Sequence record: OR525701.1
Strand: one strand, 5' to 3'
Length of the DNA: 64,000 bases
From: Escherichia phage vB-Eco-KMB38
Shown here one piece after another: positions 7,764 through 64,000 of this stretch. The notes beneath the pieces are model-generated. The model was not told the origin of the DNA. It saw only the letters and a list, made by a program, of their open reading frames with translations, and made no database searches. Every line of letters starts with the position of its first letter. Position 1 is the stretch's first letter. The position numbers were made by a program, and so were the translations under genes.

Positions 7764-8432
7764 TTATTTTAATGTTACGAAAGAAGAATTACGAGTTTCG
7801 CGAATTAGAACTGATCCATCGCGATTAATATAATAAATTAAGCTAAATAATGTTTGGTGTGCCGACGCATGTTCAAAACTGGTTGGGCGAGATTTCCAAT
7901 CAGGTGTTTCGGCTATCCATTGATAAATCCACCAAGGAACAGTAACATACCCTGGGCCTTTGCCTAATTTAATGAGTGTAGGACTAAAATTTTCAGGCAG
8001 AACAAATTTTACTTCTTTATTTACTTCTGGCTCAGGCTCTTTTTCAGATTCAACAACCTGAGTAATTGCTTCTTCAAATTTATCATGGTCGAATTCTATT
8101 TCTTGTTCGACAACTTCTAATACTTCAACTTGTTCTGCCGGAGAATCAAACAACAGAATAGCTTCTTCTTTAACTTCTTCGTTGGTGAAATTAACACCGT
8201 CCACATCATCTGCGGCAGTAATTAAATCGGTGATAGATAATCCATCAGTTTCAGGTAATGGTTCATTAGCCAGTGCGTTAAGAGCTTCTTCGATATCAAT
8301 AACAATATTATCGAATGATTTTGTTTTCTTAACACTAATACCAAATTGTGCCGCATATTCAAACAGTTTAGCTTTGGCTTCCTTTTTATCAGAAAGAGCA
8401 CGTAACTCTTCAATATAGTCTTTATCGATCAT
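7764..8432 (-). CDS. inh: Inh (inhibitor of prohead protease, hoc.1)
   Basis: 222 aa acidic protein at the hoc-uvsW position where T4 has inh (226 aa). Confidence 0.7.
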   Translation of the reverse strand: MIDKDYIEELRALSDKKEAKAKLFEYAAQFGISVKKTKSFDNIVIDIEEALNALANEPLPETDGLSITDLITAADDVDGVNFTNEEVKEEAILLFDSPAEQVEVLEVVEQEIEFDHDKFEEAITQVVESEKEPEPEVNKEVKFVLPENFSPTLIKLGKGPGYVTVPWWIYQWIAETPDWKSRPTSFEHASAHQTLFSLIYYINRDGSVLIRETRNSSFVTLK

Positions 8433-19675: not shown

Positions 19676-21762
19676 TATCCTTGGAAAAATTTAAACGGAA
19701 CTGATTCTAAATCCATTAAAGATGCTAACAATTCCAAACCTTTAGGTGCACTAGTTTTTTCTACAAATGAGGAGAACGATACCAGCTCATCAGATTCGAT
19801 TTCACCCGTCATAGCGACCACCTCGCCTGTTTCCATGAGAACATCACCATCGTAAATGACAGCTTCATCTAACTGGTCTGAAGACATGACTTCAGCTTGA
19901 ATAAATTTAAGGTTGGATTCTAAACCTGCACCAGTGTCAGATGACGCATCTGTAATTTTATTTATCTGCAAGAGAATGCCTCTAGGCAAAATAATTTCTT
20001 GCTCATTAGGGTGATTACTCAACTGTCCTGGATAAATCACGTTAACTTTATGGGCGCCATCAATAGCCCATCCAACGTTAACACGGATTTGTTCTGGCGC
20101 ATGCATAGCTGTTCTTACTTGACTAGGAGAAATAGTAACACCTTCGTCATTATTGTCAATGTTAAGCTCTTTGCGAACTTCTTCAGGAGCAAGTCCAAGG
20201 GCAACGTTCTCTTTAAACCCACCGAAAATAATAGGAGCTAGTGAAGTGGAAACATAGTTTCTGAAGTAGAATACCTTATTTTTAACCATTGCTTCGTAAA
20301 TAGGCATTCTGATAGACTGAGCTCTATATAACGTTAGACCTTCAGGTAAACGATCTCCATTTAAAAACGCCGAATCAAGACCATCAATAGCGCGTTTAAC
20401 TTCATCTTCATCTGCAACATCGTAAAAATCTGGTTTATAACGACCTAACAACATATTATTGATATCTGTATATGCAGAAGAGGCATATTCACGAATAGCT
20501 CGTTTTTCAGCAACAGAGTATTGTTTAGGGTCACGATTCATTGTTATATTAAAGGTGCCTCTAGCTGATTCTCGTGCATAAGTATACATCACATTAGACA
20601 AGAACGCTGATTTACGTTGTTTCCAAGTTCTTTCAGATACTTCAGCTAAAACGTCGTCAGGCAGTTGGAAATTATCACGTCTAAAATCTTCAAACCATTC
20701 GTCTTTAATAGAGTCTGCAATTTCATTTGCAGCTTCAACAAAAGCAGCTAATGCTTTAACAGATGTTGTTTTTTCGGTTTTAATTTTCTTAGCAAACTTT
20801 TCTAAAGTCGGCTTAATAACACTACCATAAGAAACTTCATCGGCAAATTTAAAGGATTCATCAATACGATTATAAATCTTATTTTCGATATCAGCAACTA
20901 AAGTGCCTTTTGCTGTGGACGATGCTTGGGCTAGTACGATTTCATATGCTTCAGGAAGTAATTCGGCTGTAGCCGGGCCACTAACTTCTTTAGCAGAATT
21001 TTCGTATTTCTGGAATAACTCACCTTCTTGACGGTCAGCTTCTAAAGATTGACTTGCTGCAATAGCACGACGAGAAATTTTAGTGCGAGCAATAACAGGC
21101 TTATCTTTACGTTTTTCTTCTACCGCGGCAATAGAACCAGCGATAGCCGTTTCTTTGGTGACCTTTTCACCGGTCTTTTTACTCACATAAACTTCGCCAA
21201 CATCAGAATCTACTTTCGTGTACAACTCTGTGTTAATGTTAGGGATGCCTTTAATATCTTCAATGTTGGCATTTTTACGAACCATCATCACATAGGTGTG
21301 TTTACCTGTGAATTGATACATTGCCGACAATACTTTAAAACGACCACCGGTTTTAGTAGAAACTAAACGAGCAAGAAGAGTTTGAAGCTGCTGTCCACGT
21401 CCTTTCAATTTCTTGGTAGGGAATCTGAACAGAACCGCATCCATACGAAGAGCTTTAACCTGTTCATATACTGTATTGAAAATGGTGTTGATTGCATCAA
21501 TAGGAGCAGGACCAAGGCCGTTTTTCAATTCAGCGAGATTACCCTTTTCAGACAGACTCATAATAACAACATGGGCATATTTGTCGCCAAGTTTAACTTG
21601 TTTTACAGCATCGCCTTCAGAAAGGTAAGAGAATAAGCGAACTACGATGTTTGTATCGATATCACCAATTTTCCAGACTTGTGGAACTTTAGCTTTAGGG
21701 TTCAAATTGACGACAGGAAGACTGCCTTCAGATTCAAACACTTCATTTAATTGTTCAGACAT
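19675..21762 (-). CDS. alt: Alt ADP-ribosyltransferase (packaged, modifies host RNA polymerase)
   Basis: 695 aa (T4 Alt 682 aa); position between gene 54 and ligase; N-terminus MSEQLNEVFESEGSLP. Confidence 0.88.
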   Translation of the reverse strand: MSEQLNEVFESEGSLPVVNLNPKAKVPQVWKIGDIDTNIVVRLFSYLSEGDAVKQVKLGDKYAHVVIMSLSEKGNLAELKNGLGPAPIDAINTIFNTVYEQVKALRMDAVLFRFPTKKLKGRGQQLQTLLARLVSTKTGGRFKVLSAMYQFTGKHTYVMMVRKNANIEDIKGIPNINTELYTKVDSDVGEVYVSKKTGEKVTKETAIAGSIAAVEEKRKDKPVIARTKISRRAIAASQSLEADRQEGELFQKYENSAKEVSGPATAELLPEAYEIVLAQASSTAKGTLVADIENKIYNRIDESFKFADEVSYGSVIKPTLEKFAKKIKTEKTTSVKALAAFVEAANEIADSIKDEWFEDFRRDNFQLPDDVLAEVSERTWKQRKSAFLSNVMYTYARESARGTFNITMNRDPKQYSVAEKRAIREYASSAYTDINNMLLGRYKPDFYDVADEDEVKRAIDGLDSAFLNGDRLPEGLTLYRAQSIRMPIYEAMVKNKVFYFRNYVSTSLAPIIFGGFKENVALGLAPEEVRKELNIDNNDEGVTISPSQVRTAMHAPEQIRVNVGWAIDGAHKVNVIYPGQLSNHPNEQEIILPRGILLQINKITDASSDTGAGLESNLKFIQAEVMSSDQLDEAVIYDGDVLMETGEVVAMTGEIESDELVSFSSFVEKTSAPKGLELLASLMDLESVPFKFFQG

Positions 21763-26168: not shown

Positions 26169-26210
26169 TTGGTACAGGTCTATAATAACATAACCTGTAC
26201 CAAAGTAAAC
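26169..26210 (-). promoter_or_regulatory. early promoter with stem-loop (PeSL-like cassette)
   Basis: -35 GTTTAC (rc of 26205-26210), -10 TATTAT; 10-bp perfect inverted repeat TTGGTACAGG / CCTGTACCAA brackets the -10. Confidence 0.55.
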
Positions 26211-32399: not shown

Positions 32400-32435
32400 A
32401 GGAGCATTATACTCTGCTCCTGAGAGTTTGTAAAC
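32400..32435 (-). promoter_or_regulatory. early promoter with stem-loop (PeSL-like), family A
   Basis: 7-bp inverted repeat AGGAGCA/TGCTCCT around loop TTATACTC carrying the -10; -35 GTTTAC; near-identical to the cassette at 61421-61456. Confidence 0.55.
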
Positions 32436-32940: not shown

Positions 32941-33293
32941 TCTGAGAGCTTCCTGAGGTCTTCTGCAAAGGAATCGAAGGACCTGTTGATTTGTTTTTCG
33001 ACCAATCCCGGTTTACTTGCCACCACATTCTTCTTCTTCGAATCCTTACGGAGCTTTTCATTTTCGGCCTTAAGTTGGTCAACTAAAACACGGTTCTTAT
33101 AGGTCATTTCTTCGATTGACTGATATTGAGCTTTGAAGTCGTCTAATACTTTAGCATTGTTTTTAGCGGTCTTTTTAACAGAAGCTAATTCAGTATTCAA
33201 CGAATCAACTTTGTTGTTTAAGACAACTATTGTTACCGTAGAAACTAGAGCAAAAGCTGCTACTATAGCATAAATCGGATTTACTTTAAGCAT
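32937..33293 (-). CDS. inner-membrane spanin (i-spanin), pseT.3-like
   Basis: N-terminal transmembrane helix (IYAIVAAFALVSTVTIVVL) followed by coiled-coil-like periplasmic region. Confidence 0.7.
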   Translation of the reverse strand: MLKVNPIYAIVAAFALVSTVTIVVLNNKVDSLNTELASVKKTAKNNAKVLDDFKAQYQSIEEMTYKNRVLVDQLKAENEKLRKDSKKKNVVASKPGLVEKQINRSFDSFAEDLRKLSE

Positions 33294-41378: not shown

Positions 41379-41621
41379 TCAAACAGACTTTTTCACAATT
41401 TTCCAATCAGCTTTAAACGATTCAACATCAGAGTGGTGAATCCAGAATCCTGCACTTTCACCATCTTCATAGAGTGGACATCCATCGCATTCATCTTCCC
41501 AACCCATATCGCGTAAAAGATGTTCAGCTTTTTCAACAAGTTCAGCGTCTTTACCGACGATGTTGAAGTACCATTTACCTCTAACTTCAGAATCTTTGAT
41601 GCTCTGACGTTGCAATCTCAT
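41379..41621 (-). CDS. hypothetical protein (frd.2-like), 80 aa from ATG 41621
   Basis: Track start 41636 is a GTG; the ATG at 41621 follows GAAGGAG RBS. Confidence 0.5.
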   Translation of the reverse strand: MRLQRQSIKDSEVRGKWYFNIVGKDAELVEKAEHLLRDMGWEDECDGCPLYEDGESAGFWIHHSDVESFKADWKIVKKSV

Positions 41622-41645
41622 TTTATTCTCCTTCACTTTTATTTG

Positions 41646-41683
41646 ATAGGGCTACTATAACATAGCCCTATCTTATTATAAAC
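41646..41683 (-). promoter_or_regulatory. early promoter with stem-loop (PeSL-like), family B
   Basis: 9-bp inverted repeat ATAGGGCTA/TAGCCCTAT around loop CTATAACA; -35-like GTTTAT; homologous to the cassette at 62193-62229. Confidence 0.5.
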
Positions 41684-42069
41684 TACTTTTTAAAAGTTTT
41701 TTGCAAAAGTTCGATGATTTCGTCGACGTTGGTTTCATCTACGATACAATGGATTTTTGTTACACCTAAAGTTATACCTTCGTTAGTAGGTTGAGGCTTT
41801 TCTAAAGTTACCTCAGTAAAGTATTTGAATTCTTCAGAGTAAATCTCAAAATACGTCTCAAGTGGGCCACCAGCCGTGTATTCAGTGCCATCTTCCATAG
41901 TTACACGTACCACACAATCACCAGCACAATCATCACTTTCCATTTCATCTACAACAAAACTAGGTCCGTGCTTCTCTATTAAATTTAGCATCATTACATT
42001 GCAACGGCACTCGTTAGCAAAGTCATTTTTAAATAAAGGGTTAATGATATAAGATTTTCCGATTTCCAT
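41683..42069 (-). CDS. hypothetical protein 128 aa (frd.3-like), Cys-rich N-terminus
   Basis: ATG with GAGGAAATC RBS and early promoter upstream. Confidence 0.55.
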   Translation of the reverse strand: MEIGKSYIINPLFKNDFANECRCNVMMLNLIEKHGPSFVVDEMESDDCAGDCVVRVTMEDGTEYTAGGPLETYFEIYSEEFKYFTEVTLEKPQPTNEGITLGVTKIHCIVDETNVDEIIELLQKTFKK

Positions 42070-42158: not shown

Positions 42159-42176
42159 GGGAGACCGAAGTCTCCC
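42159..42176 (-). terminator. intrinsic terminator after gene 32
   Basis: GGGAGAC-CGAA-GTCTCCC; rc followed by UUUU. Confidence 0.75.
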
Positions 42177-51173: not shown

Positions 51174-54100
51174 ATGGCTACTTTAAAACAAATACAATTT
51201 AAAAGAAGCAAAACTGCAGGAGCACGTCCTGCCGCTTCAGTATTAGCCGAAGGTGAATTGGCTATAAACTTAAAAGACCGTGTACTTTTTACTAAAGATG
51301 ACCAAGGAAATATTATTGATCTGGGTTTTGCTAAAGGTGGTAGTATTGACGGGAATGTTATTCATACAGGCAATTATAACCAAACTGGCGATTATACTTT
51401 AAATGGCGAATGTTATTCATACAGGCAATTATAACCAAACTGGCGATTATACTTTAAATGGCACCTTCACTCAAATTGGCGATTTCAATCTCAAGGGTAT
51501 TGCTCGCGTAACTCGTGATATTATTGCTGCGGGTCAGATAATGACCCATGGTGGCGAACTTATTACAAAAAGTTCAGGTACAGCACATGTTCGTTTTCAT
51601 GATTTAGCTGACCGTGAACGTGGAATCATTTTTTCTCCTGCTAATGATGGATTAACTACACAAGTTCTTAATATTAGAGTTCAAGATTACAAAGCTGGTT
51701 CAGAAAGCACTTTCGCTTTTAATGGAAATGGTTTGTTTTCTTCACCAGAAGTTTTTGGGTGGAAATCTGTATCAACTCCGGTAATTTATACCAATAAAGT
51801 TATCACCAATAAAAAAGTTAAAGATGATTATGACATCTATTCGATGGCAGACAATGTCCCATTGTCTGAAAGCACTACTGCTATTAATCATCTACGTGTC
51901 ATGCGCAATGCAGTCGGTTCTGGTATTTTCCATGAAGTTAAAGATAATGATGGAATAACTTGGTATAGTGGAGATGGATTAGATGCTTATCTTTGGTCAT
52001 TTACCTGGAGCGGCGGAATTAAATCAAGTCACTCAATTTCTATCGGTTTAACACCCGGTAATAAAGATTATTCAATATTAGGACCATCTAGCATTGCTTT
52101 AGGAGATAATGACACCGGGTTTAAATGGCATCAGGATGGATATTTTTTTACGGTAAACAACGGTACAAAAACTTTCCTTTCTGGTCCGGCGGAAACCACT
52201 AGCCTTAGAAAAATGGTTATGGGTTATTCTGTAAATGGTACTGATTTGACTACTCCTCCAACTGAAAACTATGCTCTTGCTACTGTTGTGACATATCACG
52301 ATAATAACGCGTTTGGAGATGGTCAGACTCTTTTGGGATATTATCAAGGCGGTAACTATCATCATTATTTCCGCGGCAAGGGTACCACAAACATTAATAC
52401 TCATGGCGGTTTGTTAGTTACTCCAGGTAATATTGATGTTGTTGGCGGTTCGGTTAATATCGATGGTAGAAATAATGCTTCTACGCTGATGTTTAGAGGT
52501 AACACGACCGGAGCTAGTTCAGTTGATAATATGACAATTTCCGTGTGGGGTAACACGTTTACTAATCCTAGTGTAGGTAATCGTAAAAACGTCATGGAAA
52601 TTTCTGATGCAACTAGTTGGATGAGCTATATTCAAAGACTTACTACTGGTGAAGTAGAAATGAACGTTAACGGTTCATTTGAATCATCTGGTGTTACTGC
52701 TGGAAATAGAGGAGTTCACACAACAGGCGAAATTTCATCTGGAGCAGTGAATGCTCTTCGTATTTGGAATGCAGATTATGGAGTCATTTTTAGACGTTCG
52801 GAAGGTAGTCTTCATATTATTCCAACTGCTTATGGCGAAGGCAAAGATGGCGATATCGGTCCACTTCGTCCGTTTAGTATGTCTTTAGATACAGGTAAGG
52901 TCGTTATTCCTGACCTAGATTTGAGTCATACAACTTTTGCTGAAAATGGTTTTATTAAATTCGGTGGGCATGGTGCTGGTGCCGGTGGTTATGATATTCA
53001 ATACGGCCAAGCAGCTCCTGTTTTCCAAGAAATTGATGATGACGCGGTAAGTAAATATTATCCTATTGTTAAGCAGAAATTCTTACAAGGAAAAGCTGTT
53101 TGGTCTTTAGGTACTGAAATTAATTCCGGGACTTTTGTTTTACACCATCTTAAAGAAGACGGGACCGGTGGTCATACCTCAAGATTTAATGCTGATGGTA
53201 CAGTTAATTTCCCTGATAATGTCCTGGTTGGCGGTGGTGAAGCTGCTATTGCTCGAAATGGTAATATTTTCTCTGATATTTGGAAAGTATTTACATCTGC
53301 AGGCGACGTAACTAATATTCGCGATGCAATAGCTACTCGTGTTTCTAAAGAAGGCGACAAGATGACTGGCACTCTTTGGATTAATAAAGATGCTGCTGGA
53401 ATAGTTCTTAATCCTCCTTTGGCCAGTGATTCATCATTTATTCGTTCTGATACGGCCGGGGCCAATAATTGGTATATTGGTAAAGGCGGTGCCGACAATG
53501 GTCTAGGTTTTTACAGTTATGTTACACAAGGCGGTGTATACATAACAACTAACGGTGAAATATCGCTTTCTCCTCAAGGCCAAGGAACATTTAATTTTAA
53601 TAGAGACCGCCTCCATATAAACGGTACACAATGGACCGCACACCAGGGTGGTGGTTGGGGAAATCAATGGAATCAAGAAGCACCGGTATTTGTAGATTTT
53701 GGTAATGTTGGTAATGATAGTTATTATCCTATTATTAAAGGAAAATCCGGTATTACTAATGAAGGATACATATCTGGTGTAGATTTTGGTATGCGACGCA
53801 TTACTAATACATGGGCACAAGGTATTATTCGTGTAGGTAATCAGGAAAACGGTTACGACCCACAAGCTGTATATGAATTCCATCATAACGGTACTTTTTA
53901 TGCTCCAAGCTTACTTAAGAGCAGTAGAGTATCAGCTGGTGGTGGTGACCCTGCATGGGGCGGGCCGTGTATTGTACTTGGAGATAACGATACCGGTTTG
54001 CTTTGGGAAGCAGACGGTATTTTCAACGCATATGCAAACGGCCAAGGTGTGTTTAGTTTTAGACCTGGTTTAGCTCAGACATTCGGTGATGTTAACTTCC

Positions 54101-54480
54101 ACTGTAATGCAGGTATGTATGTTCGTGATAACATTGATGTTAACGACGTTTATATTCGTTCTGATATTCGTTGTAAGTCGGAAATTAAGCTTATTAAGAA
54201 CGCTCAAGAGAAATCTAAACTATTGGGCGGTTATACTTATCTGCTTAAAAACTCTGTTACAGACGAAGTTAAACCGTCCGCAGGTTTAATTGCTCAGGAA
54301 GTTCAAGAAGTATTACCTGAACTTGTTTCTGAAGATAAAGAGACCGGACTGCTTCGTTTGAACTATAACGGTATTATTGGTTTAAATACAGCTGCAATAA
54401 ACGAGCATACAGATGAAATCAAGGAATTGAAATCTGAAATTACCGAATTGAAAGCATTAATTAAATCATTGATAAAATAA
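51174..54480 (+). pseudogene. 37: long tail fibre distal subunit gp37, reading frame broken by a 55-bp tandem duplication
   Basis: N-terminal ORF 51174-51434 ([35 protein letters not shown]..., T4 gp37 N-terminus) stops in the second repeat copy; the remainder 51403-54480 is in another frame. Removing one 55-bp copy restores a single 1083-codon ORF. Confidence 0.8.
51353..51462 (+). repeat. perfect direct tandem duplication, 2 x 55 bp
   Basis: 51353-51407 and 51408-51462 are identical (GAATGTTATTCATACAGGCAATTATAACCAAACTGGCGATTATACTTTAAATGGC). Confidence 0.95.
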
Positions 54481-54484
54481 TAAA

Positions 54485-54500
54485 AGGGCCTTCGGGCCCT
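54485..54500 (+). other. intercistronic hairpin between genes 37 and 38
   Basis: AGGGCC-TTCG-GGCCCT followed by GGAGG RBS of gene 38. Confidence 0.5.
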
Positions 54501-54510
54501 GGAGGTTTAT

Positions 54511-55290
54511 ATGGCAGTAGTAGGAATCCCTGGTTGGATTGGGACTTCAGCCGTTGCTGAAACGGGACAAAGATGGATGACGGCTGCTTCAAGGGAACTT
54601 CGTTTAGGAAACCCTTCATGGATGTCCCAATTCGCGGGCCGTTCAAGAGAAATAATTCATACACTTGGTGCAGACCATAACTTTAACGGGCAATGGTTCC
54701 GTGACCGTTGCTTTGAAGCTGGCGGCGCTCCTATAGTGTTTAATATCACCGGAAATTTAGTATCATATAGTAAAGATGTTCCATTATTCTTTATGTATGG
54801 CGATACACCGAATGAATATGTTACTTTGAATATTCATGGTGGAGTTCATATGTGGGGACGAGGTGGTAACGGCACTGTAAACGGAAACCCAGGCACAAAT
54901 GGCGGCGATGTAATCCAAAATGATATCGGCGGAAGACTTCGTATTTGGAACTATGGCGTTATTGCATCAGGCGGTGGCGGTGGCGGTGCAGTGTCATTAC
55001 AGAATAGCTGGGCTCCAAATGCTACAGCAGGTGGCGGTGGTGGTAGACCATTTGGCATCGGCGGAGGTGGCGTTAATTGGCCGGGTGGTAATGCTAGTTA
55101 TGACGCCCCGGGCGGTGCTGGTTACACTTCCCAATTCGGCGGAGGCAATGGCGGTGATGCTGGCGCTCGGGGTGGAGATGGATGGGGTAATCACTTATCT
55201 AGATCTGGCGGTGGTGCTCCTGGCAGAGCAGTATTCGGAAGTTCACCGTCATGGGGTGCTACAGGCACAATCTACGGCTCCTGGATTTAA
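54511..55290 (+). CDS. 38: receptor-recognising adhesin gp38, T2/T6 type with glycine-rich motifs
   Basis: 259 aa; conserved N-terminal gp37-binding region and C-terminal polyglycine stretches (GGGGGG, GGGGG, GGGG) separated by hypervariable segments. Confidence 0.85.
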
Positions 55291-55308
55291 ACGATAATAC
55301 CTCTCAAT

Positions 55309-55316
55309 TATAAATA
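55309..55316 (+). promoter_or_regulatory. late promoter TATAAATA for holin gene t
   Basis: Exact TATAAATA about 20 nt upstream of ATG 55336. Confidence 0.6.
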
Positions 55317-55335
55317 TTGATAAATGGGAGGTAAT

Positions 55336-55995
55336 ATGGCAGCACCAAAAGTATCATTTTCGCCTAGTGATATTTTATTTGGGTTGCTAGACCGCATTTT
55401 CAAAGATAACGCCTCTGGAAATATTCTTATTTCAAGAGTTGCTGTTGTAGTTCTTTTGTTCCTAATGGCACTAATATGGTACAAAGGGAATATTTTTATG
55501 GATTATTACGTGAGGTCGAAATATGATACTTACACAGAAGTAATTCAAAAAGAAAGAAATACACGATTTGAATCTGCGGCTTTAGAACAACTACAAATAG
55601 TCCACGTCACATCAAGGGCGGATTTTAGTTCGGTGTATTCTTTCAGACCTAAAAATCTAAATTATTTCGTCGACCTTATTGCGTATGAAGGTAAGTTACC
55701 TAGCACAGTAACTGAAAAATCTATGGGAGGATTTCCTGTTGATAAAACGACAGCAGAATATTCGGTCCATTTAAGTGGACTTCACTTTACTTCTAAAACA
55801 GATTTTGCTTTCTTACCTACCAAATCAAAAACTCCGGAACTGGCGTATATGTATAGTTGTCCTTACTTCAATTTGGATAACATATATGCGGGAACTGTTT
55901 CTATGTATTGGTATAAGGGGTCGGATGTGTTAAATGAAGAACGCTTGGCTGCAATATGCAACCAAGCAGCAAGGATATTAGGGCGGGCTAAATAA
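55336..55995 (+). CDS. t: holin
   Basis: MAAPKVSFSPSDILFGLLDRIFKDN...; single N-terminal transmembrane segment and large periplasmic domain as T4 holin T; start at ATG 55336 after GGGAGG RBS (track opens at 55324). Confidence 0.9.
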   Translation: MAAPKVSFSPSDILFGLLDRIFKDNASGNILISRVAVVVLLFLMALIWYKGNIFMDYYVRSKYDTYTEVIQKERNTRFESAALEQLQIVHVTSRADFSSVYSFRPKNLNYFVDLIAYEGKLPSTVTEKSMGGFPVDKTTAEYSVHLSGLHFTSKTDFAFLPTKSKTPELAYMYSCPYFNLDNIYAGTVSMYWYKGSDVLNEERLAAICNQAARILGRAK

Positions 55996-56268
55996 TTAGT
56001 TGTTAGAATACATCGTCAAATGGCGATAAATATTTTCAAAACCTTCATTGAATTCACTAATCAGTGTTTTCTTTTCTTCGGCAGTTAAATTTGTAATTAG
56101 TTTTCTGAACGAATTCTGATTTAGCTGCCGACCATCTTTTTTAATTCCAATCTCATTCAAGAATCCGATGAAATTTGCTCGGTCTTCAACAATATCTTCC
56201 CTAGAGAATTTAATCAAAATAGAAGCAATAGTAATAATTTCACGTACGATTTCAATGTCTTTATTCAT
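55996..56268 (-). CDS. asiA: anti-sigma70 factor AsiA
   Basis: 90 aa as T4 AsiA; MNKDIEIVREIITIASILIKFSREDIVEDRANFIGFLNEIG. Confidence 0.92.
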   Translation of the reverse strand: MNKDIEIVREIITIASILIKFSREDIVEDRANFIGFLNEIGIKKDGRQLNQNSFRKLITNLTAEEKKTLISEFNEGFENIYRHLTMYSNN

Positions 56269-56314
56269 AACGTTTTATTCATTCCACTTAATTGATAGGA
56301 GTATAGTACCATTA

Positions 56315-56476
56315 TCAGTGTTGATTGTAAACGGCTTTTTCTACGCTTTTAACGTAATTGATATAGTCTTCCTGTTCGTACGAGTGTAAAGCCAAGAACT
56401 GAACTAATAGTTCATTATAGACTAAAGCCTCACGCTCACGTTCTGCCTCTACTACGTTCTGAAGATTATGGCTCAT
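56315..56476 (-). CDS. possible small ORF, 53 aa from ATG 56476
   Basis: AAGGAA RBS; overlaps the upstream ORF by 11 nt; weak. Confidence 0.3.
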   Translation of the reverse strand: MSHNLQNVVEAEREREALVYNELLVQFLALHSYEQEDYINYVKSVEKAVYNQH

Positions 56477-56765
56477 ATCGTTCCTTATAACTATCAATAT
56501 AGTCCTGTATGTCGAAGAATGACATTTCATATTCTAGGACATTAAGAGCCCGTTCTTCAGTATAGTCAGAACCAAAGACGATAGTGATTTCACCAGGCTT
56601 CATGTGATTGAAATCCACACTAAAAGGAATACGAGAACATACTTCGTCTGCCATATCTGCGACAACACTACGATACACTTCTCGGTTAACCTGATAAAGC
56701 TCTGCGAGTTCTTCACAACGAATAACAAGTTCAGTGGCAGGATTTTCTTTGATTTTAGTAAGCAT
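56466..56765 (-). CDS. hypothetical acidic protein 99 aa, at the position where T4 has arn
   Basis: Position immediately after asiA; acidic composition; sequence identity to Arn not verified. Confidence 0.5.
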   Translation of the reverse strand: MLTKIKENPATELVIRCEELAELYQVNREVYRSVVADMADEVCSRIPFSVDFNHMKPGEITIVFGSDYTEERALNVLEYEMSFFDIQDYIDSYKERYEP

Positions 56766-56839
56766 AGTCTTTACCCTTATGTTTTTGTTTGCGTTTAGAT
56801 TGAAGTTCTGATTTCTTCTTGTCCTTATGGACAGAAGCC

Positions 56840-57067
56840 TTATTGAAATCGTGTTTTGCTACAAGATTGTTCATAATGATTTATAACCTCATTTAAACAT
56901 TTATCGGTAAAAGAAAACTTTTTAGCCACAGAACATTCGATAATGTGTTCTTTCAAATCTTTAGAGTCAGTATAACCCATCTCAGTAATAAAGTGGCGAA
57001 TTAAAGCTTTATTCTTATCATTAACAGAATTAAAATAATCTGCTTTAGAATCAATTATTCTCATCAT
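56840..57067 (-). CDS. hypothetical protein 75 aa
   Basis: ATG start; compact operon. Confidence 0.5.
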   Translation of the reverse strand: MMRIIDSKADYFNSVNDKNKALIRHFITEMGYTDSKDLKEHIIECSVAKKFSFTDKCLNEVINHYEQSCSKTRFQ

Positions 57068-57332
57068 CTAATTTCCTTAACTGATATTGCAACGAGCTAA
57101 TAATTTCTTCGTTCATTTTAATATACATGTCACGCAAGAAAGGTTTTAACCCTTCACGAATAATTGCTAATGTATCACCTTTACATAGATTGACCAAATA
57201 AGGATGATCTAAAGCATCCCAGCCAGGCTGATTAGCATACATACCATAGTTTTCTTCCATCATATGATTAAGACGTTTGATATCTTGGATACGTGATTCA
57301 ATAGCATCTTTCTGGAGTTGTTTAATATTCAT
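57051..57332 (-). CDS. hypothetical protein 93 aa
   Basis: ATG start adjacent to upstream stop. Confidence 0.5.
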   Translation of the reverse strand: MNIKQLQKDAIESRIQDIKRLNHMMEENYGMYANQPGWDALDHPYLVNLCKGDTLAIIREGLKPFLRDMYIKMNEEIISSLQYQLRKLDDENN

Positions 57333-57793
57333 TAATAAAGGTCCTCTGAATAAAGTTCTTTCTCACTTCCGCCACGTTCAATACGTACCTGTCCAGCATA
57401 CGTTGCAATAATCATTGCTTCTTCACGCGTCCAGTAATTAGAGTATTGGTCAATAAAACCTTGGTCGTCACCACAAACTTGTTGCGAGACTAATTGAGGA
57501 CCAACTATATCAAGTACTTCAGCCATATCTTTAGAGTAATGACGAACTCCAGGAATAACCAGAGTTCCACCGCTCTTCAATTTAAACCTATTAGCTGCAC
57601 ATACTATAACACGTTGAACTTTTTGGTCATTGTTCCAATAGCACGTTTGCCAACAGATTTCAGGAACTTCATTCATTATATCATCAGCAGAATAATTATA
57701 ACCGTAGGACTGGAATTTTTCTGCTAGACTTTCAGGAGTCTCACGAGACAAGGCCAAATCTAATAGCTCTAAACGTTCTTTAAATGATTTCAT
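57332..57793 (-). CDS. hypothetical protein 153 aa with conserved-looking core (VIVCAANRF...GG...[10 protein letters not shown]...[20 protein letters not shown])
   Basis: ATG start; motif pattern suggests an enzyme fold but family not identified. Confidence 0.55.
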
Positions 57794-58119
57794 TTAAACC
57801 ATTCCTTAATACGTTGCCAAATAGATTTTTGTGCTTGTTTATTTACACCAATCGAACGAATAACCGGTTGTGACTGCTGATATTCTTTATAATCTTCTTT
57901 ATAGATTTCGTAAGCCGCATCAACAAATGAACTGATCGCTGCCATGTAGTTTTTACGAAGGCCAAATGGCGCGTCATTATTTTCACGAATAACCGTATAT
58001 TGGCCTGCTTTAATCTTTACAATTGTCCCTAAATAAGCCCCATGGTACCAAATATCCCATCCTTCCTGAGTAGGTTCTGCACATTTACGAAGTTCATTAA
58101 TAATATTCAGCTTATTCAT
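57790..58119 (-). CDS. hypothetical protein 109 aa
   Basis: ATG start overlapping upstream stop (ATGA). Confidence 0.55.
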
Positions 58120-58129
58120 TATGTATTCC

Positions 58130-58762
58130 TCACAGTACGTTAGTTACAAGGGTAATGATTTCTTTGGACACATTAGGGAAGTCAATGTAAGTATATTTAC
58201 CACCGATCTTAATCTTAACATCATTTTCAAGAGAAGTAAACAGCTTTGATTCAGTTTCTGACATGTTGTATGCAAAGATTCTAAGAGCGCCATCTCGTCG
58301 AATTTCAATTTGGCGAATGCCTAGAACTCGTTTAGCGAATCGAACTTCTAAGTTACTACGGTTTTCACCAATTTCTTTAACTTCAACTTTATCTTTAATA
58401 TTTTCAAAAACAAAGTTTGCTAATTCATGCATTTCAGGAGTAACTCCACGTGCTTTTCTAGTGTTACGTTTCTGAAGAAGTTCTGGAGCATTTTCTTGGG
58501 CAAAGAGGTCTGCAGCTTTTTGGATAATATCCATTGCTTCGCCTGTTGCTACAAGTCCGTCACCGGATTTTTCGACTAAACCTTTCTTAATCAATACACC
58601 AATGTTAGAGTTAACAACTGATGCGTTGTATTCTGCTTCCAGAGCTTCACGGACATTGGCAGCAGTGGTGAAGTTGTTCTTAATGATATAAACCATTATT
58701 GCAGCAGTTTTTTCATTCAGAGCGTTTTCAGAAGCTTTGATGATGTAAGTAACTTTAGACAT
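58130..58762 (-). CDS. motA: middle transcription activator MotA
   Basis: 210 aa (T4 MotA 211 aa); N-terminus MSKVTYIIKAS... and NSNIGVLIKKGLVEKSGDGL segment. Confidence 0.9.
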   Translation of the reverse strand: MSKVTYIIKASENALNEKTAAIMVYIIKNNFTTAANVREALEAEYNASVVNSNIGVLIKKGLVEKSGDGLVATGEAMDIIQKAADLFAQENAPELLQKRNTRKARGVTPEMHELANFVFENIKDKVEVKEIGENRSNLEVRFAKRVLGIRQIEIRRDGALRIFAYNMSETESKLFTSLENDVKIKIGGKYTYIDFPNVSKEIITLVTNVL

Positions 58763-58799
58763 TTTATTTCTCCAAATTAGTATTTGTTTTGATAGGTCT

Positions 58800-58828
58800 A
58801 TAATATCATGTTTGAAGCAAAAGTAAAC
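58800..58828 (-). promoter_or_regulatory. early promoter GTTTAC-N17-TATTAT upstream of motA
   Basis: rc GTTTACttttgcttcaaacatgaTATTAT then AGACCTATCAAAAC leader; part of a duplicated cassette. Confidence 0.55.
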
Positions 58829-58865
58829 TTTATTTTGGGCTCTTTTTCAAAAGCCCTGGTAAAAT

Positions 58866-59081
58866 TTACAAACTCATTTCTTTAATAAGGCTAATAAGTT
58901 TTGCCTTTTTAGAACGAAGCTTTTCTAAATGATGACCATTTGAACCGCGAACCACTAAAGAATTGATTTCAACTTCTAAGAAATTTAATTCTTCAACAAG
59001 TGCTTTACGGAGAGCATTCATACCAGGTTTGACTTTACCGAAACGAGTAGTTGTGTTTTGGGTTAATTTCATTTTAGACAT
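58866..59081 (-). CDS. hypothetical protein 71 aa sharing promoter/leader with motA
   Basis: Starts MSKM..., same leader and RBS as motA (MSKV...). Confidence 0.55.
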   Translation of the reverse strand: MSKMKLTQNTTTRFGKVKPGMNALRKALVEELNFLEVEINSLVVRGSNGHHLEKLRSKKAKLISLIKEMSL

Positions 59082-59120
59082 TTTATTTCTCCAATTTGGT
59101 TGTTTTGTTTTGATAGGTCT

Positions 59121-59149
59121 ATAATATCATGTTTGAAGCACATGTAAAC
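59121..59149 (-). promoter_or_regulatory. early promoter GTTTAC-N17-TATTAT (duplicate of the motA promoter)
   Basis: Near-identical to 58800-58828. Confidence 0.55.
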
Positions 59150-59174
59150 TGTTTTGTGAGAAAAATGCACAAAA

Positions 59175-59190
59175 GGGAGCCGAAGCTCCC
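59175..59190 (-). terminator. terminator after gene 52
   Basis: GGGAGC-CGAA-GCTCCC; rc followed by UUUU. Confidence 0.7.
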
Positions 59191-59266
59191 TAATCATGAT
59201 TGTCCAACCAATACAGCCAAATCACTAGTGCAGCTATTGCACCGAGAAATCCTAAGGCTAGGGCAC

Positions 59267-60592
59267 TCAAAGTGCCTCCAAGTCTTTAGTGTACTCTGTC
59301 ACAACATCAGTAGACTTCCAATACTCATTTTCTTCTTTCTTAGCTTTAGCTTCTTCTGCTAGTTTACGTGCTTCATCGGAAGTGATATGGAAGATGTTAA
59401 GACCTACCAGTTTATCAACATGTTCTTTATACATTTCGATTTGTGCTAGCTCTTCAGTCAAAGCTTTACGGGTCTTGCCCTGAATCACAATTTCGCCACT
59501 GATAACTTTTTTGATGAAGTGTGCCTTAGCAAAAGCAAGTTTAAATGCTTTTTCAGATTCAAGGATTTTGTTATCAATACGTTTCTGAACGTAAGTCTTA
59601 CGGACTTCAACAAAATCTTTGATTAAGTCCACTACGTTATCGTAGACCGCTAATTTACCCTTTTCATTAATCACTGTGATGTTTTGTGAACGACGTTCGA
59701 TGAGACTAAAATCTTTCATGATTTTTTCATGACGTAGCTCTTCATCATCAGGAAGCGAGTACTCTTTACGGAACTTCACCTTAAACCCAAAGCCGTGTTC
59801 ACCGCAATCATCTTCCCATGAGATTAGACCTTTGTCTTCCAACGGGTCAAGAACCTTACTCACATACGTTTCACGGTCGAATTTATATGGGATTTCAGTT
59901 ATCTGCATTTGAGTGCGAGATGTGAACTTATATGTTCCGTGAATCTCATAACGTCCATCAACTTCATGCACTTCACCACGGAATTCCGGGAATTCAACTT
60001 TTGGTTTAGTGACATTTTTACCTTGAAGAGCTTGTAATACGGCCTTTTTGACTGATTTAAAACTATGAGGCAGAATATTTGTTGCGTAACCGGTTGCAAT
60101 ACCAGAGACGCCATTCAAAAGAACTGTCGGAATAATAGGAAGATAGAATTTTGGTGGAACGTGTTCTTTATCTTCATGTGCTGGAGCATATTCAGTATCT
60201 TTATAGACATTATAGAAATTTTTACTTACACGAGCAAAAATATAACGAGATGCTGCAGCTTTTTGGACTGTTCTAGAACCAAAGTTGCCTTGGCCGTCTA
60301 ACAGTGGATAGTTGTTATTCCACGTATTAGCCATCAATGCACCTGCATCTTGTGCAGAAGATTCGCCATGATGATAACCTAAATCAGCAACACCGCCTGC
60401 AATTGACGCAAGTTTATGAAATTTTTCTTTATTACCACGAGCCAAATCTAACGCACGATGAACCACAAAACGTTGAACCGGCTTAAATCCATCAATCATG
60501 TTTGGGATTGCACGGTTTTCAACGGTGTACATCGCATATGCTAAGGCTTCGTTATCAATAATACTTTTTAGATTACGAGAATTCAATTGCAT
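59267..60592 (-). CDS. 52: DNA topoisomerase II medium subunit gp52
   Basis: 441 aa (T4 gp52 442 aa); GyrA-like N-terminal motifs (AMYTVENRAIPNMIDGFKPVQR) with active-site Tyr region. Confidence 0.95.
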   Translation of the reverse strand: MQLNSRNLKSIIDNEALAYAMYTVENRAIPNMIDGFKPVQRFVVHRALDLARGNKEKFHKLASIAGGVADLGYHHGESSAQDAGALMANTWNNNYPLLDGQGNFGSRTVQKAAASRYIFARVSKNFYNVYKDTEYAPAHEDKEHVPPKFYLPIIPTVLLNGVSGIATGYATNILPHSFKSVKKAVLQALQGKNVTKPKVEFPEFRGEVHEVDGRYEIHGTYKFTSRTQMQITEIPYKFDRETYVSKVLDPLEDKGLISWEDDCGEHGFGFKVKFRKEYSLPDDEELRHEKIMKDFSLIERRSQNITVINEKGKLAVYDNVVDLIKDFVEVRKTYVQKRIDNKILESEKAFKLAFAKAHFIKKVISGEIVIQGKTRKALTEELAQIEMYKEHVDKLVGLNIFHITSDEARKLAEEAKAKKEENEYWKSTDVVTEYTKDLEAL

Positions 60593-60596
60593 ATTT

Positions 60597-60737
60597 TCAC
60601 CATATTAATGAACGAATAACCATTATAACATCTGAAATGAAAAGCACTACTTGGATTAGTCCAAACATCACACCGTAGTACAGAACAGTAAGCAACAACA
60701 AGAGCCCGAAGGCTCCTGCTAAGATTTTCTTAATCAT
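60597..60737 (-). CDS. small hydrophobic membrane protein, 46 aa (not in ORF track)
   Basis: MIKKILAGAFGLLLLLTVLYYGVMFGLIQVVLFISDVIMVIRSLIW; start overlaps the upstream stop (TAATG). Confidence 0.4.
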   Translation of the reverse strand: MIKKILAGAFGLLLLLTVLYYGVMFGLIQVVLFISDVIMVIRSLIW

Positions 60738-60883
60738 TACTCGCCTTTTAACACGTTAAAAAGAGCTAAGACCGCTAAGGTACCTTGTGATACGGCCTGT
60801 TGAAATACTGTTGTTTCGCCTGTAACTAAAGTATTAACGAATAAAAACGACCAACACAACAATGCAATAATCCATGCTACCAT
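60737..60883 (-). CDS. small hydrophobic membrane protein, 48 aa (not in ORF track)
   Basis: MVAWIIALLCWSFLFVNTLVTGETTVFQQAVSQGTLAVLALFNVLKGE; position between ndd and gene 52 where T4 has small membrane genes (ac/stp region). Confidence 0.4.
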   Translation of the reverse strand: MVAWIIALLCWSFLFVNTLVTGETTVFQQAVSQGTLAVLALFNVLKGE

Positions 60884-60935
60884 TTTATTACCTCACAAAT
60901 AAATTAAAGGGCCTATTAAGCTAGGCCTATATAAA

Positions 60936-61382
60936 TTAGTAACTCTGCAGAATGAATTTGAAATTATCTGCCAGAAGACGGTTCATTTCAGTGAGTGTTT
61001 GATATTCTGATGTATGATTGCGAGTGAATGCCAGAGCCAATTGTCCTTTACCATAACCAGTAGTCAGTGGTTTCATGTTCTTAGCTGCAACAAAGATTAC
61101 GTCATATTCAATATTGTTAGTGCCCATGGTACGGGCTAGTTGCGAACGGCCTTGACGAATGTGAGAAAGAATTGCATCCAACCCTTGTTTAGAACGTTGA
61201 CGTCCTACAAAAAATCGTGCTGCTACTTGTCGCCAATCAGATGAACCTTTAACAAAGAAGTAAAAACCTTCACGAGAACGAAACTCTTTAGAAACTTCGG
61301 AACCGTATTCGCCATTACGAACTACTGCAACAACTTCACCGCCAACTGCCAGAAGGTCTTTACGAGTTAAATATTTAGACAT
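60936..61382 (-). CDS. ndd: nucleoid disruption protein Ndd
   Basis: 148 aa; ...[29 protein letters not shown]...[40 protein letters not shown] as T4 Ndd. Confidence 0.85.
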
Positions 61383-61420
61383 GCTAATTTCCTCAATTGA
61401 TTAATGTTTTTGTAATCCGT

Positions 61421-61456
61421 GAGAGCATTATACTCTGCTCTCAAGAGTTTGTACAA
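61421..61456 (-). promoter_or_regulatory. early promoter with stem-loop (PeSL-like), family A, upstream of ndd
   Basis: 7-bp inverted repeat GAGAGCA/TGCTCTC around loop TTATACTC (-10 TATAAT on - strand). Confidence 0.55.
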
Positions 61457-61458
61457 TT

Positions 61459-61659
61459 TTATTCGGCCATATCAGAACGTTCAAAAAGCTCTTCAACAGT
61501 TAAACATTCGGTATCATCCTCAATAAAGAATCGGGACCAACACGTTGGGGTGATGCAGTTATGAGTTTGTCCGGCTATAGAAGCTACACGAATAAGCTGC
61601 TGGCCATTATTCAGGACAAATTTTTCACCAATTTCAACATCTTTAAAAAGCTTAGCCAT
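61459..61659 (-). CDS. hypothetical protein 66 aa
   Basis: ATG with GAGGAACA RBS and early promoter upstream. Confidence 0.5.
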   Translation of the reverse strand: MAKLFKDVEIGEKFVLNNGQQLIRVASIAGQTHNCITPTCWSRFFIEDDTECLTVEELFERSDMAE

Positions 61660-61687
61660 TTTGTGTTCCTCGTGTTTTGATAAGACT

Positions 61688-61717
61688 ACTATACCATAAT
61701 CCTACTGTGTTGTAAAC
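61688..61717 (-). promoter_or_regulatory. early promoter GTTTAC ... TATAGT
   Basis: rc GTTTACaacacagtaggattatggTATAGT then AGTCTTATCAAAAC leader. Confidence 0.5.
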
Positions 61718-61909
61718 AATTAAATTACATTAAAATATGTTAAAGCCAACCATGTTCCAGTGAACGAACATGCGATGTAAAAACCAGTATCACAAATTGT
61801 TCTTAGTACAATAAGAAGTGCATTTTTCATAAGTACCTCAATGCAATTGAAAATATTATACAAATCATAGGGATACTAAGCAACCATATTCCGATCCACA
61901 TTTTAGAGC

Positions 61910-62173
61910 TCATATCTCAACTTCCGCGAGTTCCATATATCCTTTGTTGATAACATCTTTAAGGTCTTTAGAAAGAATGACATTAAAATGGTCGTTCATA
62001 TGTCCATTAACCAGACGAGTTATTTCGGCTTCAGATGACATATAAGGCATGTCTGAGTCCCAATGAGATAGTCCCAAATGGGTATAAACCATCCCTTCGT
62101 CATCTGCAGTGTTGTACATCGAAACAAATTCGCCTGTTACTTTATGTTTTGCGTAGAAAAATTTAAATTTCAT
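61910..62173 (-). CDS. hypothetical protein 87 aa
   Basis: ATG with AGAGGA RBS and PeSL-like promoter upstream. Confidence 0.5.
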   Translation of the reverse strand: MKFKFFYAKHKVTGEFVSMYNTADDEGMVYTHLGLSHWDSDMPYMSSEAEITRLVNGHMNDHFNVILSKDLKDVINKGYMELAEVEI

Positions 62174-62192
62174 GATGTTATCCTCTTTTAGA

Positions 62193-62229
62193 TAGGACTA
62201 CTATAACATAGTCCTACTTAGTTGTAAAC
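62193..62229 (-). promoter_or_regulatory. early promoter with stem-loop (PeSL-like), family B
   Basis: 8-bp inverted repeat TAGGACTA/TAGTCCTA around loop CTATAACA; -35 GTTTAC. Confidence 0.5.
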
Positions 62230-62241
62230 ACTTTTATGAAA

Positions 62242-62799
62242 TTAAAGATGAAGATACCACCCGTTGTAGTTGCTCTTGCGGACGATTTTCTTTAGGTCTT
62301 CATGGTCTCCCACGAACTTTATAGAATAAGAGAAGACGTCAGGTGAGGTTTCTTTGACATCTAATATAATAATGCAATCTGCGACTCGATGGTTCAAGAA
62401 GGGCCCTATATTGATTCCATTACCACCCGGATAATCACCACTGTATCCTGTGGTAACCGAAATCCATTTAGAATCTACCTGGTGCGTCTTGACTTCGACA
62501 CGCAACCCGCAGTATTTAGGATGAGCTAACACGTCCCATGCATACGTGTACGGGTCTTCTACGTCTTCAATACCTTTATTAACATATCCATCTAGCCAAT
62601 TTGCTACCACATACTCTGCAAAGACTGCAACCTTACAACGACGAACTACATCTTCTTTGTTTTGGTCAGGATTTTGGCTCAGGGAATACCGAGCAGTGTC
62701 AGCAATCTTCACCTTCATTTCACTAGTCAAAAACTCATTCGACAGGATAAATGTCGGAAGATTCTTCAGTCTCAACAGTCCCAAGTTCGTCTTTACCAT
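62242..62799 (-). CDS. denB: endonuclease IV
   Basis: 185 aa from ATG 62799 (AGAGG RBS), the T4 DenB length; motif VANWLDG...DPYT.AWDVLAHPKYCGLRVEVKT...GINIGPFLNHRVAD; track ORF opens at 62862. Confidence 0.75.
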   Translation of the reverse strand: MVKTNLGLLRLKNLPTFILSNEFLTSEMKVKIADTARYSLSQNPDQNKEDVVRRCKVAVFAEYVVANWLDGYVNKGIEDVEDPYTYAWDVLAHPKYCGLRVEVKTHQVDSKWISVTTGYSGDYPGGNGINIGPFLNHRVADCIIILDVKETSPDVFSYSIKFVGDHEDLKKIVRKSNYNGWYLHL

Positions 62800-63022
62800 A
62801 GATACCTCTGATGTGTAGTTCGCCAAAATAAATGCGGTCTCCTTCTTCAAGATAGTTAGCATCTACCGGTGGGATTTCAATAACAACTTCGTCGCATTCT
62901 AACCAGCCGTAGTGTGCATCACCAGGATGTTTTACCAATTTAGCACAATAAACTGATTTACACTTATGATGACCGCGAAGATTAGCAATTTTGGATTCTG
63001 ATACGTCAAATGGATGAATCAT
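62735..63022 (-). CDS. hypothetical protein (denB.1-like), 95 aa from ATG 63022
   Basis: Track start 63061 is a TTG; ATG 63022 follows AGGGGT RBS; overlaps the denB start region. Confidence 0.45.
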   Translation of the reverse strand: MIHPFDVSESKIANLRGHHKCKSVYCAKLVKHPGDAHYGWLECDEVVIEIPPVDANYLEEGDRIYFGELHIRGIYGKDELGTVETEESSDIYPVE

Positions 63023-63043
63023 AATTACCCCTAAAGAAAAAAA

Positions 63044-63059
63044 GGGGACCGAAGTCCCC
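63044..63059 (-). terminator. terminator after rIIB
   Basis: GGGGAC-CGAA-GTCCCC; rc followed by UUUUUUU. Confidence 0.7.
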
Positions 63060-63064
63060 AATTA

Positions 63065-63991
63065 TTATTCTGCAAATAATTCAGTAACGTCTGAAATTAC
63101 TTCATAACGACAAGTACGCATCTTAGCATCGCCATAGTCAACTGGGATGGACACAACATCACGCGGATGAACTTTAACCTTAACAACTTTATCTGAGCTA
63201 GAACCAAAGTAACGAATATATGATTTAGCACAAACATGTAGACCACGGGAACAAGTTTGTGTATCATCATCGTTAACACGAGTACGAGGCATTGAAACAA
63301 CTTTACCAGGCGAGTTATCAAATGTGCCACTATAGCAATCTAAATAGTCTTTACGAACTACTTTCCACGCATAGAAATGCCCATCTTTAGTGATTTCAAT
63401 ATCGTTTGCAACCAAGAAGTCGAATAAACGTTGTACAGCTTTTTCGCTTGGGTTTTCTAACAGGTTTTCAAGGAACGGCAGGTAGAATTTAAAGTCTTCG
63501 CCTTTTTCCATGGAATCAATAATACGATTAACCAGCCCTGAACGAATCTCTATACCTTGATAAAATAAACTACCACCTTCAATAGTAACATTACCGTCAA
63601 CAAACTTACTAATAGCTTTCTTGATGTTAATAAGTTCGACAGCTTTACTAAGGTTTCCTGCGACCAAATTAGCTTTAATTTCTTCAAAATTTGCATGACT
63701 TGATGGGGTCGCATTGTATGCTACGCGTCCTTCAATGATTGAAATAAATTTAGATGACGCATTCCATACGATTTCAGGACGATGGCCGCTGATAATAGGT
63801 TCATCATTTTCTGGAACTTCTTCAACTTTCGAAGTCTCATCTTCGGCTTTAAAATTCTTAACAATCTTACGAAGAGTATCTGTTGAAATGTCGAAGTAAT
63901 CAGCAATTTCCCGACGGGTCCATTGACCTGATTCAACCAGTCTGTAAGCTTCTAACTGTTCTTCTTTGGACAAGCATTTGATATTGTACAT
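63065..63991 (-). CDS. rIIB: rIIB membrane-associated rapid-lysis protein
   Basis: 308 aa (T4 rIIB 312 aa); MYNIKCL... and conserved C-terminal block FDFLVANDIEIT...YAWKVVR...MPRT.VNDDDTQTCSRGLHVC.KSYIR.FGSS.D.VVKVKVHPRDVVSIP. Confidence 0.92.
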   Translation of the reverse strand: MYNIKCLSKEEQLEAYRLVESGQWTRREIADYFDISTDTLRKIVKNFKAEDETSKVEEVPENDEPIISGHRPEIVWNASSKFISIIEGRVAYNATPSSHANFEEIKANLVAGNLSKAVELINIKKAISKFVDGNVTIEGGSLFYQGIEIRSGLVNRIIDSMEKGEDFKFYLPFLENLLENPSEKAVQRLFDFLVANDIEITKDGHFYAWKVVRKDYLDCYSGTFDNSPGKVVSMPRTRVNDDDTQTCSRGLHVCAKSYIRYFGSSSDKVVKVKVHPRDVVSIPVDYGDAKMRTCRYEVISDVTELFAE

Positions 63992-64000
63992 AATGTTTCC

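Follow-up and report, generated by a model that had tools for sequence, protein, structure and literature searches.

Predicted early promoter cassettes with a stem-loop around the -10 box beside small genes of an RB69-like phage

Promoter-early stem-loops and related elements of T4-type phages

PeSL (promoter-early stem-loop) elements were reported from RB49/phi1, and examples in PST/T4 and nt-1/KVP40 were added afterwards (Arbiol et al. 2010, PMC2839356; Comeau et al. 2014, PMC4122927). Stem-loops that overlap the -10 box are among their commonest subclasses, G-T pairs are marked in the published stems, and recombination between neighbouring copies leads to deletions and mini-circles (PMC2839356, PMC4122927). 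RB69-like phages are not mentioned in the RB49/phi1 paper (PMC2839356).

We analyzed a stretch of 64,000 nucleotides from Escherichia phage vB-Eco-KMB38 (OR525701.1), hereafter called the window. The phage is of the T4 type and belongs to the RB69-like genus Mosigvirus. The window is 97.5-99.9% identical to Escherichia phage AlbertHofmann, and this near-identical relative was used as a proxy for genome-wide cassette counts. The identity is 99.9% at window positions 9219-51407 and only 97.5% at 51408-64000. The change at about 51407 lies within the tail-fibre genes and comes with an offset of 55 bp; it points to a mosaic junction of the two phages.

An earlier note on this DNA had described two homologous promoter/stem-loop cassettes (family B) that precede small genes of variable regions. 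This description is borne out by the promoter hexamers and their spacing, by predicted RB69 early promoters at orthologous positions and by covariation among 40 cassettes, although the window holds three members of the family rather than two. The family-B cassettes are members of the published PeSL class (PMC2839356, PMC4122927). They are real but ordinary, as that class is already in print. Five of the six defining PeSL features were found at them, namely a promoter, a stem-loop upstream of the start, a position in the gap between a stop codon and a Shine-Dalgarno sequence, repetition near small genes, and recombination as seen in genome comparison. The class is hereby extended to RB69-like phages (Mosigvirus). 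New in this study are a bias of wobble pairs toward the sense strand and, in the related phage JM10, a deletion between two of the window copies.

Like the RB49/phi1 PeSLs (PMC2839356), the window cassettes have a sigma-70-type early promoter, an A/T-rich region upstream of it and a stem-loop before the start. They also lie in the stretch from a stop codon to the ribosome site that follows, are repeated in variable regions beside small genes of unknown function, and contain G-T stem pairs, and an intervening gene appears to have been removed by recombination of neighbouring copies. Two differences were found. The stems of RB49 are often polyG/polyC and its promoter is of the TTGACA type, whereas the window stems are A/T-richer (TAGGRCTA) and their -35 box is the T4-type GTTTAC. 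In addition, the RB49/phi1 PeSLs are known with mini-circle and reporter data, and the window copies from sequence comparison.

The ndd-denB PeSLs of PST/T4 (PMC4122927, Fig. 6A) occupy the same locus as sites 2 and 3 of the window. ORF268 of Yersinia phage PST, which is exchanged in that example (PMC4122927), is homologous to the 87-aa ORF downstream of site 2 (67% identity), and the promoter consensus of the PST/T4 PeSLs, TTTACW-N17-TAYWAT (PMC4122927), fits the window cassettes. However, the PST stem-loops stand just upstream of the promoter according to the Fig. 3 legend (PMC4122927), unlike those of the window. We read the stem of the PST denB cassette in the spacer (ACCACA..TGTGGT), not around the -10 box, and its sequence is unrelated to the window stem.

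The cassettes also resemble the hairpins of T4 e, soc, 49 and I-TevI (PMC3014915), in which the promoter lies inside the 5' half, such that read-through RNA can fold and internally started RNA cannot. Those T4 hairpins pair with the Shine-Dalgarno sequence or the AUG and hold late promoters (PMC3014915), whereas family B holds an early promoter and leaves the ribosome site out of its pairing. In RNA folds of family B, the Shine-Dalgarno sequence was unpaired at sites 1 and 3, and site 2 had only weak outer pairs near the ATG. Intrinsic terminators of the T4 type likewise place a hairpin shortly after a stop codon. Family B differs from them in the lack of a U-tract, in a loop of 6-8 nt instead of a UUCG/GNRA tetraloop, and in a lower G+C content.

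Promoters and hairpins at the three sites

Read on the minus strand, each element has the form GTTTAY-N15-TGn-TATAGT, which is the pattern of the T4-type early promoter class (PMC2988021). In the sigma-70 frame, all three sites show TTTAYA, a 17-nt spacer, TATAGT and the TG of an extended -10. On these sequence features, each element is a predicted early promoter for the host sigma-70 polymerase. Nolan et al. (2006) predicted early promoters at the RB69 orthologues of site 2 (Pe:165795, score 40.3) and site 3 (Pe:165283, score 37.9) (PMC1524935, Additional file 3). In the RB69 Pe model the start is 7 nt after the -10 box, and C residues at -3 to -1 were remarked for RB69 early promoters; hairpins or inverted repeats are not mentioned by Nolan et al. 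(PMC1524935). Mapped on the window, this model gives predicted starts at 41647, 62193 and 61681 for sites 1, 2 and 3. Maps of transcript starts or 3' ends in T4 or RB69 were sought in the literature, and nothing usable came to light.

Around each -10 box there is an inverted repeat of 8-11 bp, with the left arm in the spacer, the -10 box itself in the loop and the right arm (-6 to +1) ending at the predicted +1. The GTTTAC/GTTTAT motif, earlier said to follow the element, is indeed a -35 promoter box, but in the direction of transcription (minus strand) it precedes the hairpin and the -10 box lies in the loop. What had been taken for a conserved leader beginning with CCTATC is really the 3' end of the right arm, with the predicted start inside it. 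With a predicted start where the right arm ends, the cassette's own transcript would not contain the hairpin. The cassette fills the 61-68 nt from the stop of one small early gene to the ribosome site of the next; the hairpin is located 6-13 nt before that ribosome site and about 10-20 nt past the upstream stop codon. Only about 1/4 to 1/3 of the genome's early promoters have such a repeat.

The genes around sites 1 and 2 are all on the minus strand. At site 1, an FRD2-family gene (41683-42069) and a DUF5417 gene (41379-41621) are separated by 61 nt, in which the cassette lies. Its arms ATAGGGCTA / TAGCCCTAT (41646-41654 and 41663-41671) and its loop CTATAACA are as originally described, but the stem has 10 Watson-Crick pairs, not 9. 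The minus-strand hairpin GATAGGGCTA / TAGCCCTATC (41645-41672) adds a closing U.G to these pairs and has the loop GUUAUA; its RNA fold reaches -18.7 kcal/mol (z = -5.25). The upstream stop codon overlaps the -35 box GTTTAT (41678-41683, minus strand), the G of which is the last base of the TAG of the FRD2-family gene. The extended -10, TGT plus TATAGT (41654-41662, minus strand), lies within the loop and the first right-arm pairs, and the start predicted by analogy with the RB69 Pe model is the A at 41647. The downstream unit (41379-41631, minus strand) begins with the Shine-Dalgarno sequence GGAG at 41628-41631 and the ATG at 41619-41621 and encodes an 80-aa DUF5417 protein, a homologue of T4 frd.1. 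Thus site 1 does not precede an frd.2-like ORF, as had been proposed, but follows the FRD2-family gene and precedes the frd.1-like one.

Site 2 lies in a 68-nt gap between denB (62242-62718 according to the AlbertHofmann annotation) and the 87-aa ORF (61910-62173), which it had rightly been said to precede. Its arms TAGGACTA / TAGTCCTA (62193-62200 and 62209-62216) flank a loop identical to that of site 1, and the G/A difference between the two left arms is matched by C/T in the right arms exactly as the earlier note described. The 8-bp arms were correctly delimited, but on the minus strand an outer G.U and a closing U.G extend them to the hairpin (G)TAGGACTA / TAGTCCTA(T) (62192-62217) with 8 Watson-Crick pairs. 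The RNA fold is -15.4 kcal/mol (z = -2.6). On the minus strand, the -35 box GTTTAC (62224-62229) stands 12 nt past the denB stop codon and the extended -10, TGT plus TATAGT, is at 62200-62208; the predicted start, the A at 62193, is the final base of the right arm. The downstream unit (61910-62185, minus strand) has the Shine-Dalgarno sequence GAGGA at 62181-62185 and the ATG of the 87-aa ORF at 62171-62173. Homology of T4 to the window ends within the -35 box of site 2.

The third copy, site 3 (61680-61717), is 512 bp from site 2. The 14-mer CTATGTTATAGTAG, with at most 2 mismatches, had five matches in the window against 0.56 expected, and no shuffle reached five. The match at 33260 is spurious, being inside the i-spanin gene and without a -35 box, and the match at 59632 (plus strand) was set aside as spurious, judged by eye from the matched sequence alone. 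On the minus strand, site 3 has its -35 box GTTTAC at 61712-61717, its extended -10, TGG plus TATAGT, at 61688-61696, and a predicted start A at 61681. Its hairpin GTAGGATTAT / GTAGTCTTAT (61680-61705, minus strand) comprises 10 pairs, four of them G.U, and the stem TAGGATTA / TAGTCTTA can pair on the minus strand only, through these G.U pairs. The minus-strand RNA folds weakly (z = -1.1), and no fold was obtained from the plus-strand RNA or, under DNA parameters, from either strand. The hairpin of site 3 may be decaying. The downstream gene (61459-61659) is a homologue of ndd.1. Seven copies of family B were counted in the AlbertHofmann genome. Every one of them stands immediately behind a stop codon, and the annotation tables place a small ORF downstream of each.

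Between site 3 and the 87-aa ORF (61720-61913, minus strand) there are only tiny overlapping ORFs of 26-47 aa. They are annotated in AlbertHofmann and not in RB69, and may have been left by decaying genes or may encode small membrane peptides, as T4 ndd.2-ndd.6 do. On the same strand, the window also contains two canonical intrinsic terminators of the T4 type, one after gene 32 (42159-42176; GGGAGAC-TTCG-GTCTCCC-TTTT) and another at 63044-63059 (GGGGAC-TTCG-GTCCCC-TTTTTTT).

Covariation of the stem and the role of the hairpin

To collect further cassettes, viral and metagenome contigs were scanned with patterns that fixed the -35 box, the TGn, the -10 box and at most the inner stem. The search anchors left the outer stem free, and 74 distinct cassettes in T4-like context were obtained. 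An initial scan of IMG/VR with the loop plus TATC gave almost only chance matches and was used as a negative control. No Rfam covariance model matched around site 1 or 2 at E-values up to 1.

Pairing among the 74 T4-like cassettes was bimodal, with 41 nearly fully paired and 33 not. Among 40 distinct cassettes of the paired set, 6 of the 11 stem pairs had changes on both sides. In this set 97% of the cells pair, compared with 32-66% in slid controls, and 0 of 500 shuffles reached the observed values, although these shuffle statistics overstate independence because the set was selected for pairing and its sequences are related. In other clades, a stem is found at the same place with different sequences (GTGTAGGAGTA, ACAAGACTA and GTGTAGGGATA).

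These data bear on the idea that the stem is functionless, the copies being recent duplicates of one promoter whose right arm is merely the conserved -6 to +1 segment. Promoters without a left-arm complement do have the same right side (TAGTCTTA / TAGTTCTA), and most Mosigvirus copies are very similar. However, pairing is bimodal, not graded; distant clades have kept the stem through double-sided changes, transitions in the stem nearly all preserve pairing, and the T4 frd.2-frd.1 junction has a different stem, AGGGTAGTA / TATTACCCT, at the same place. We therefore regard a functionless stem as highly improbable.

The T4 frd.2-frd.1 junction (T4 146004-146143) is orthologous to site 1. Its -10 hairpin is followed by an unannotated 22-codon ORF (MFAPYIMAAVMLVCLYLLIKAC) and then by frd.1. 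Elsewhere in T4, the early promoter before dmd (about 20560-20612, between gene 41 and dmd) has a 15-bp stem, AGCTGACAAGACTAT / GTAGTCTTGTCGGTT, around its TATAGT -10. This dmd promoter is a good case for studying the role of the hairpin in a model phage.

The oppositions in the stem that are not Watson-Crick pairs are informative about the strand. In a tally per locus and position, 21 were G.U on the sense strand and one, in Mizar, was A.C (p = 5e-6 against 0.5; p = 0.004 against a compositional baseline of 0.7). This bias suggests, as mechanistic evidence, that the stem is selected as RNA and not as a DNA palindrome. Taken together, the covariation, the sense-strand G.U bias, the fold of site 3 on the minus strand only, and the presence of stems in other clades and in T4 point to an RNA hairpin of the sense strand in read-through transcripts, and speak against both a cruciform and a palindrome that binds a protein.

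Could the inverted repeat act in DNA instead, where a cruciform or single-strand hairpin would tune the opening of the -10 box, or would stall replication and so promote recombination between cassettes? The repeat is centred on the -10 box, and in vitro the stem-loops of PeSLs blocked a sequencing polymerase (PMC2839356). As DNA, sites 1 and 2 fold better than shuffles do (-9.1 and about -5 kcal/mol), and JM10 (see below) shows recombination inside a cassette. A cruciform, however, requires pairing in both strands, and 21 of the 22 wobble-type oppositions pair on the sense strand only; moreover, site 3 does not fold at all under DNA parameters. Stems of 8-10 bp with a loop of 6-8 nt also extrude poorly as cruciforms, which counts against action in DNA. 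We consider this explanation unlikely.

A palindrome over the -10 box is also reminiscent of classical operators, and the shut-off of T4 early promoters is not completely understood (PMC3014915). The repeat might accordingly be the binding site of a dimeric protein, for example a factor that shuts off early promoters. Against this, the arms vary by cassette and clade (TAGGGCTA, TAGGACTA, GTGTAGGAGTA, ACAAGACTA, GTGTAGGGATA) and yet stay complementary; no conserved half-site was found, the arms showing compensating changes and G.U pairs. Pairing maintained through G.U would be meaningless for a double-stranded site, and the repeat occurs at only about a quarter to a third of the early promoters. 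An operator appears extremely improbable.

The hairpin might also be a plain intrinsic (Rho-independent) terminator of the upstream gene that overlaps the promoter by chance. It lies about 10-20 nt past a stop codon, and a PeSL stem-loop of RB49/phi1 cut lacZ expression as much as rrnB T1 did (PMC2839356). However, a terminator scan of the minus strand at sites 1 and 2 did not call the hairpin, and across the 40 cassettes the next 7 nt consist of 70% A and 9% T and in no case include more than two T. The transcribed (minus) strand thus has an A-rich tract where a terminator would have a U-tract, and the hairpin is not a canonical intrinsic terminator. The plus-strand scan did flag sites 1 and 2 as terminator-like, but no plus-strand genes are nearby to use such a terminator, and the real terminators of this phage are of the different GGGAGAC-TTCG-GTCTCCC-TTTT type. 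This reading is very unlikely. Given the absence of a U-tract and of a terminator call, the terminator role claimed for PeSLs finds no sequence support here.

Thus we think it highly probable that each element is a PeSL-type cassette, in which a strong early promoter is combined with a hairpin that encloses the -10 box in read-through RNA, and which recombines through its copies. The hairpin of such a cassette would form only in RNA reading through from upstream promoters, and most likely would mark or insulate the end of the upstream unit. It might act as a pause site or attenuator, as a structure protecting the 3' end of the upstream message or, ahead of the ribosome site, as a structure that dampens translation of read-through messages. 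Transcripts begun at the cassette itself would carry a short, unstructured, A-rich leader.

Recombination at cassettes and other promoter hairpins

The proposal that the cassettes are mobile regulatory elements agrees with the gene-sized indels of related phages, which end in cassettes in JM10 and Mizar. Exactly the 512-bp stretch that separates sites 3 and 2 is missing from JM10. The absent window positions, 61735-62191 (minus strand), form a module with the 87-aa ORF and tiny ORFs. JM10 aligns to the window in two parts, whose 55-bp overlap falls precisely within the cassette, and it has a single chimeric cassette, its denB side corresponding to site 2 and its ndd.1 side to site 3. JM10 thus offers a clean natural case in which the loss of a gene module is delimited precisely by two copies of the cassette. 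The JM10 arrangement could also be ancestral instead of a deletion and could, in principle, be an assembly collapse.

In Mizar, an extra 120-aa ORF separates the FRD2 gene from the DUF5417 gene. A family-B cassette flanks this ORF on its upstream side, and a different cassette with a hairpin around the -10 box flanks it downstream; homology to the window breaks after CCTATCAAA and returns at GGAGAATAAAATG. PHB12 also has an extra ORF in the frd region, and this one is not bounded by cassettes. The cassettes are therefore one route of gene exchange but not the only one. The alignments of these related phages show apparent losses or gains of small genes through recombination between cassette copies. 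On this comparison, copies of about 55 bp serve as short homologies, and recombination at them deletes, inserts or swaps the small genes in between. The cassettes can be used in annotating the transcription units and variable modules of therapeutic T4-like phages.

Many other early promoters of the genome have another kind of hairpin, with an anti-Shine-Dalgarno sequence as the spacer that directly follows GTTTAC (e.g. TTCTCCTCTAGTTG ... CAACTAGAGGAGAA). Examples are found at AlbertHofmann 132657, 91306, 78049 and 136185 and at T4 position 8218. Their stem has 8-14 bp, encloses both the -10 box and the +1, and pairs with the next gene's ribosome site. They resemble the hairpins of T4 e/soc/49/I-TevI but have early promoters. 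The duplex between a spacer and its own ribosome site was -6.67 kcal/mol, compared with -5.39 kcal/mol for other pairings (permutation p = 1e-4). In family B, this duplex was about -1 to -2 kcal/mol in each window copy and reached up to -7.4 kcal/mol in one other copy, at AlbertHofmann 140278.

It is possible, though doubtful, that an early promoter inside a hairpin is a general design of Tevenvirinae, by which read-through RNA and locally started RNA are treated differently. The anti-Shine-Dalgarno class would then hide the ribosome site, and the family-B class, a short hairpin around the -10 box that lacks a U-tract, would be a factor-dependent attenuator or a damper of translation. Were this rule true, expression of a small gene would come essentially from its own cassette alone, which would explain why promoter and gene move together.

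Further promoter hairpins and cassettes were seen in the window, all on the minus strand. A second hairpin family surrounds a TATAAT -10 at 61420-61443 (promoter from 61455) and at 32400-32421 (promoter from 32435), one copy standing before ndd and the other before a homing-endonuclease-like ORF. Its minus-strand loop is GAGTATAA, and its arms, TGAGAGCA / TGCTCTCA versus AGGAGCA / TGCTCCT, show compensating differences. The early promoter at 26169-26210 has a 12-bp stem, TTGGTACAGGTT / GACCTGTACCAA, around the -10 box TATTAT. In addition, two promoter cassettes of about 78 bp (58754-58829 and 59073-59150), 91% identical, form direct repeats 320 bp apart and bracket a small ORF between motA and gene 52. 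The spacers of this pair contain TGCTT, a MotA-box-like motif, adjoining the early -35 box.
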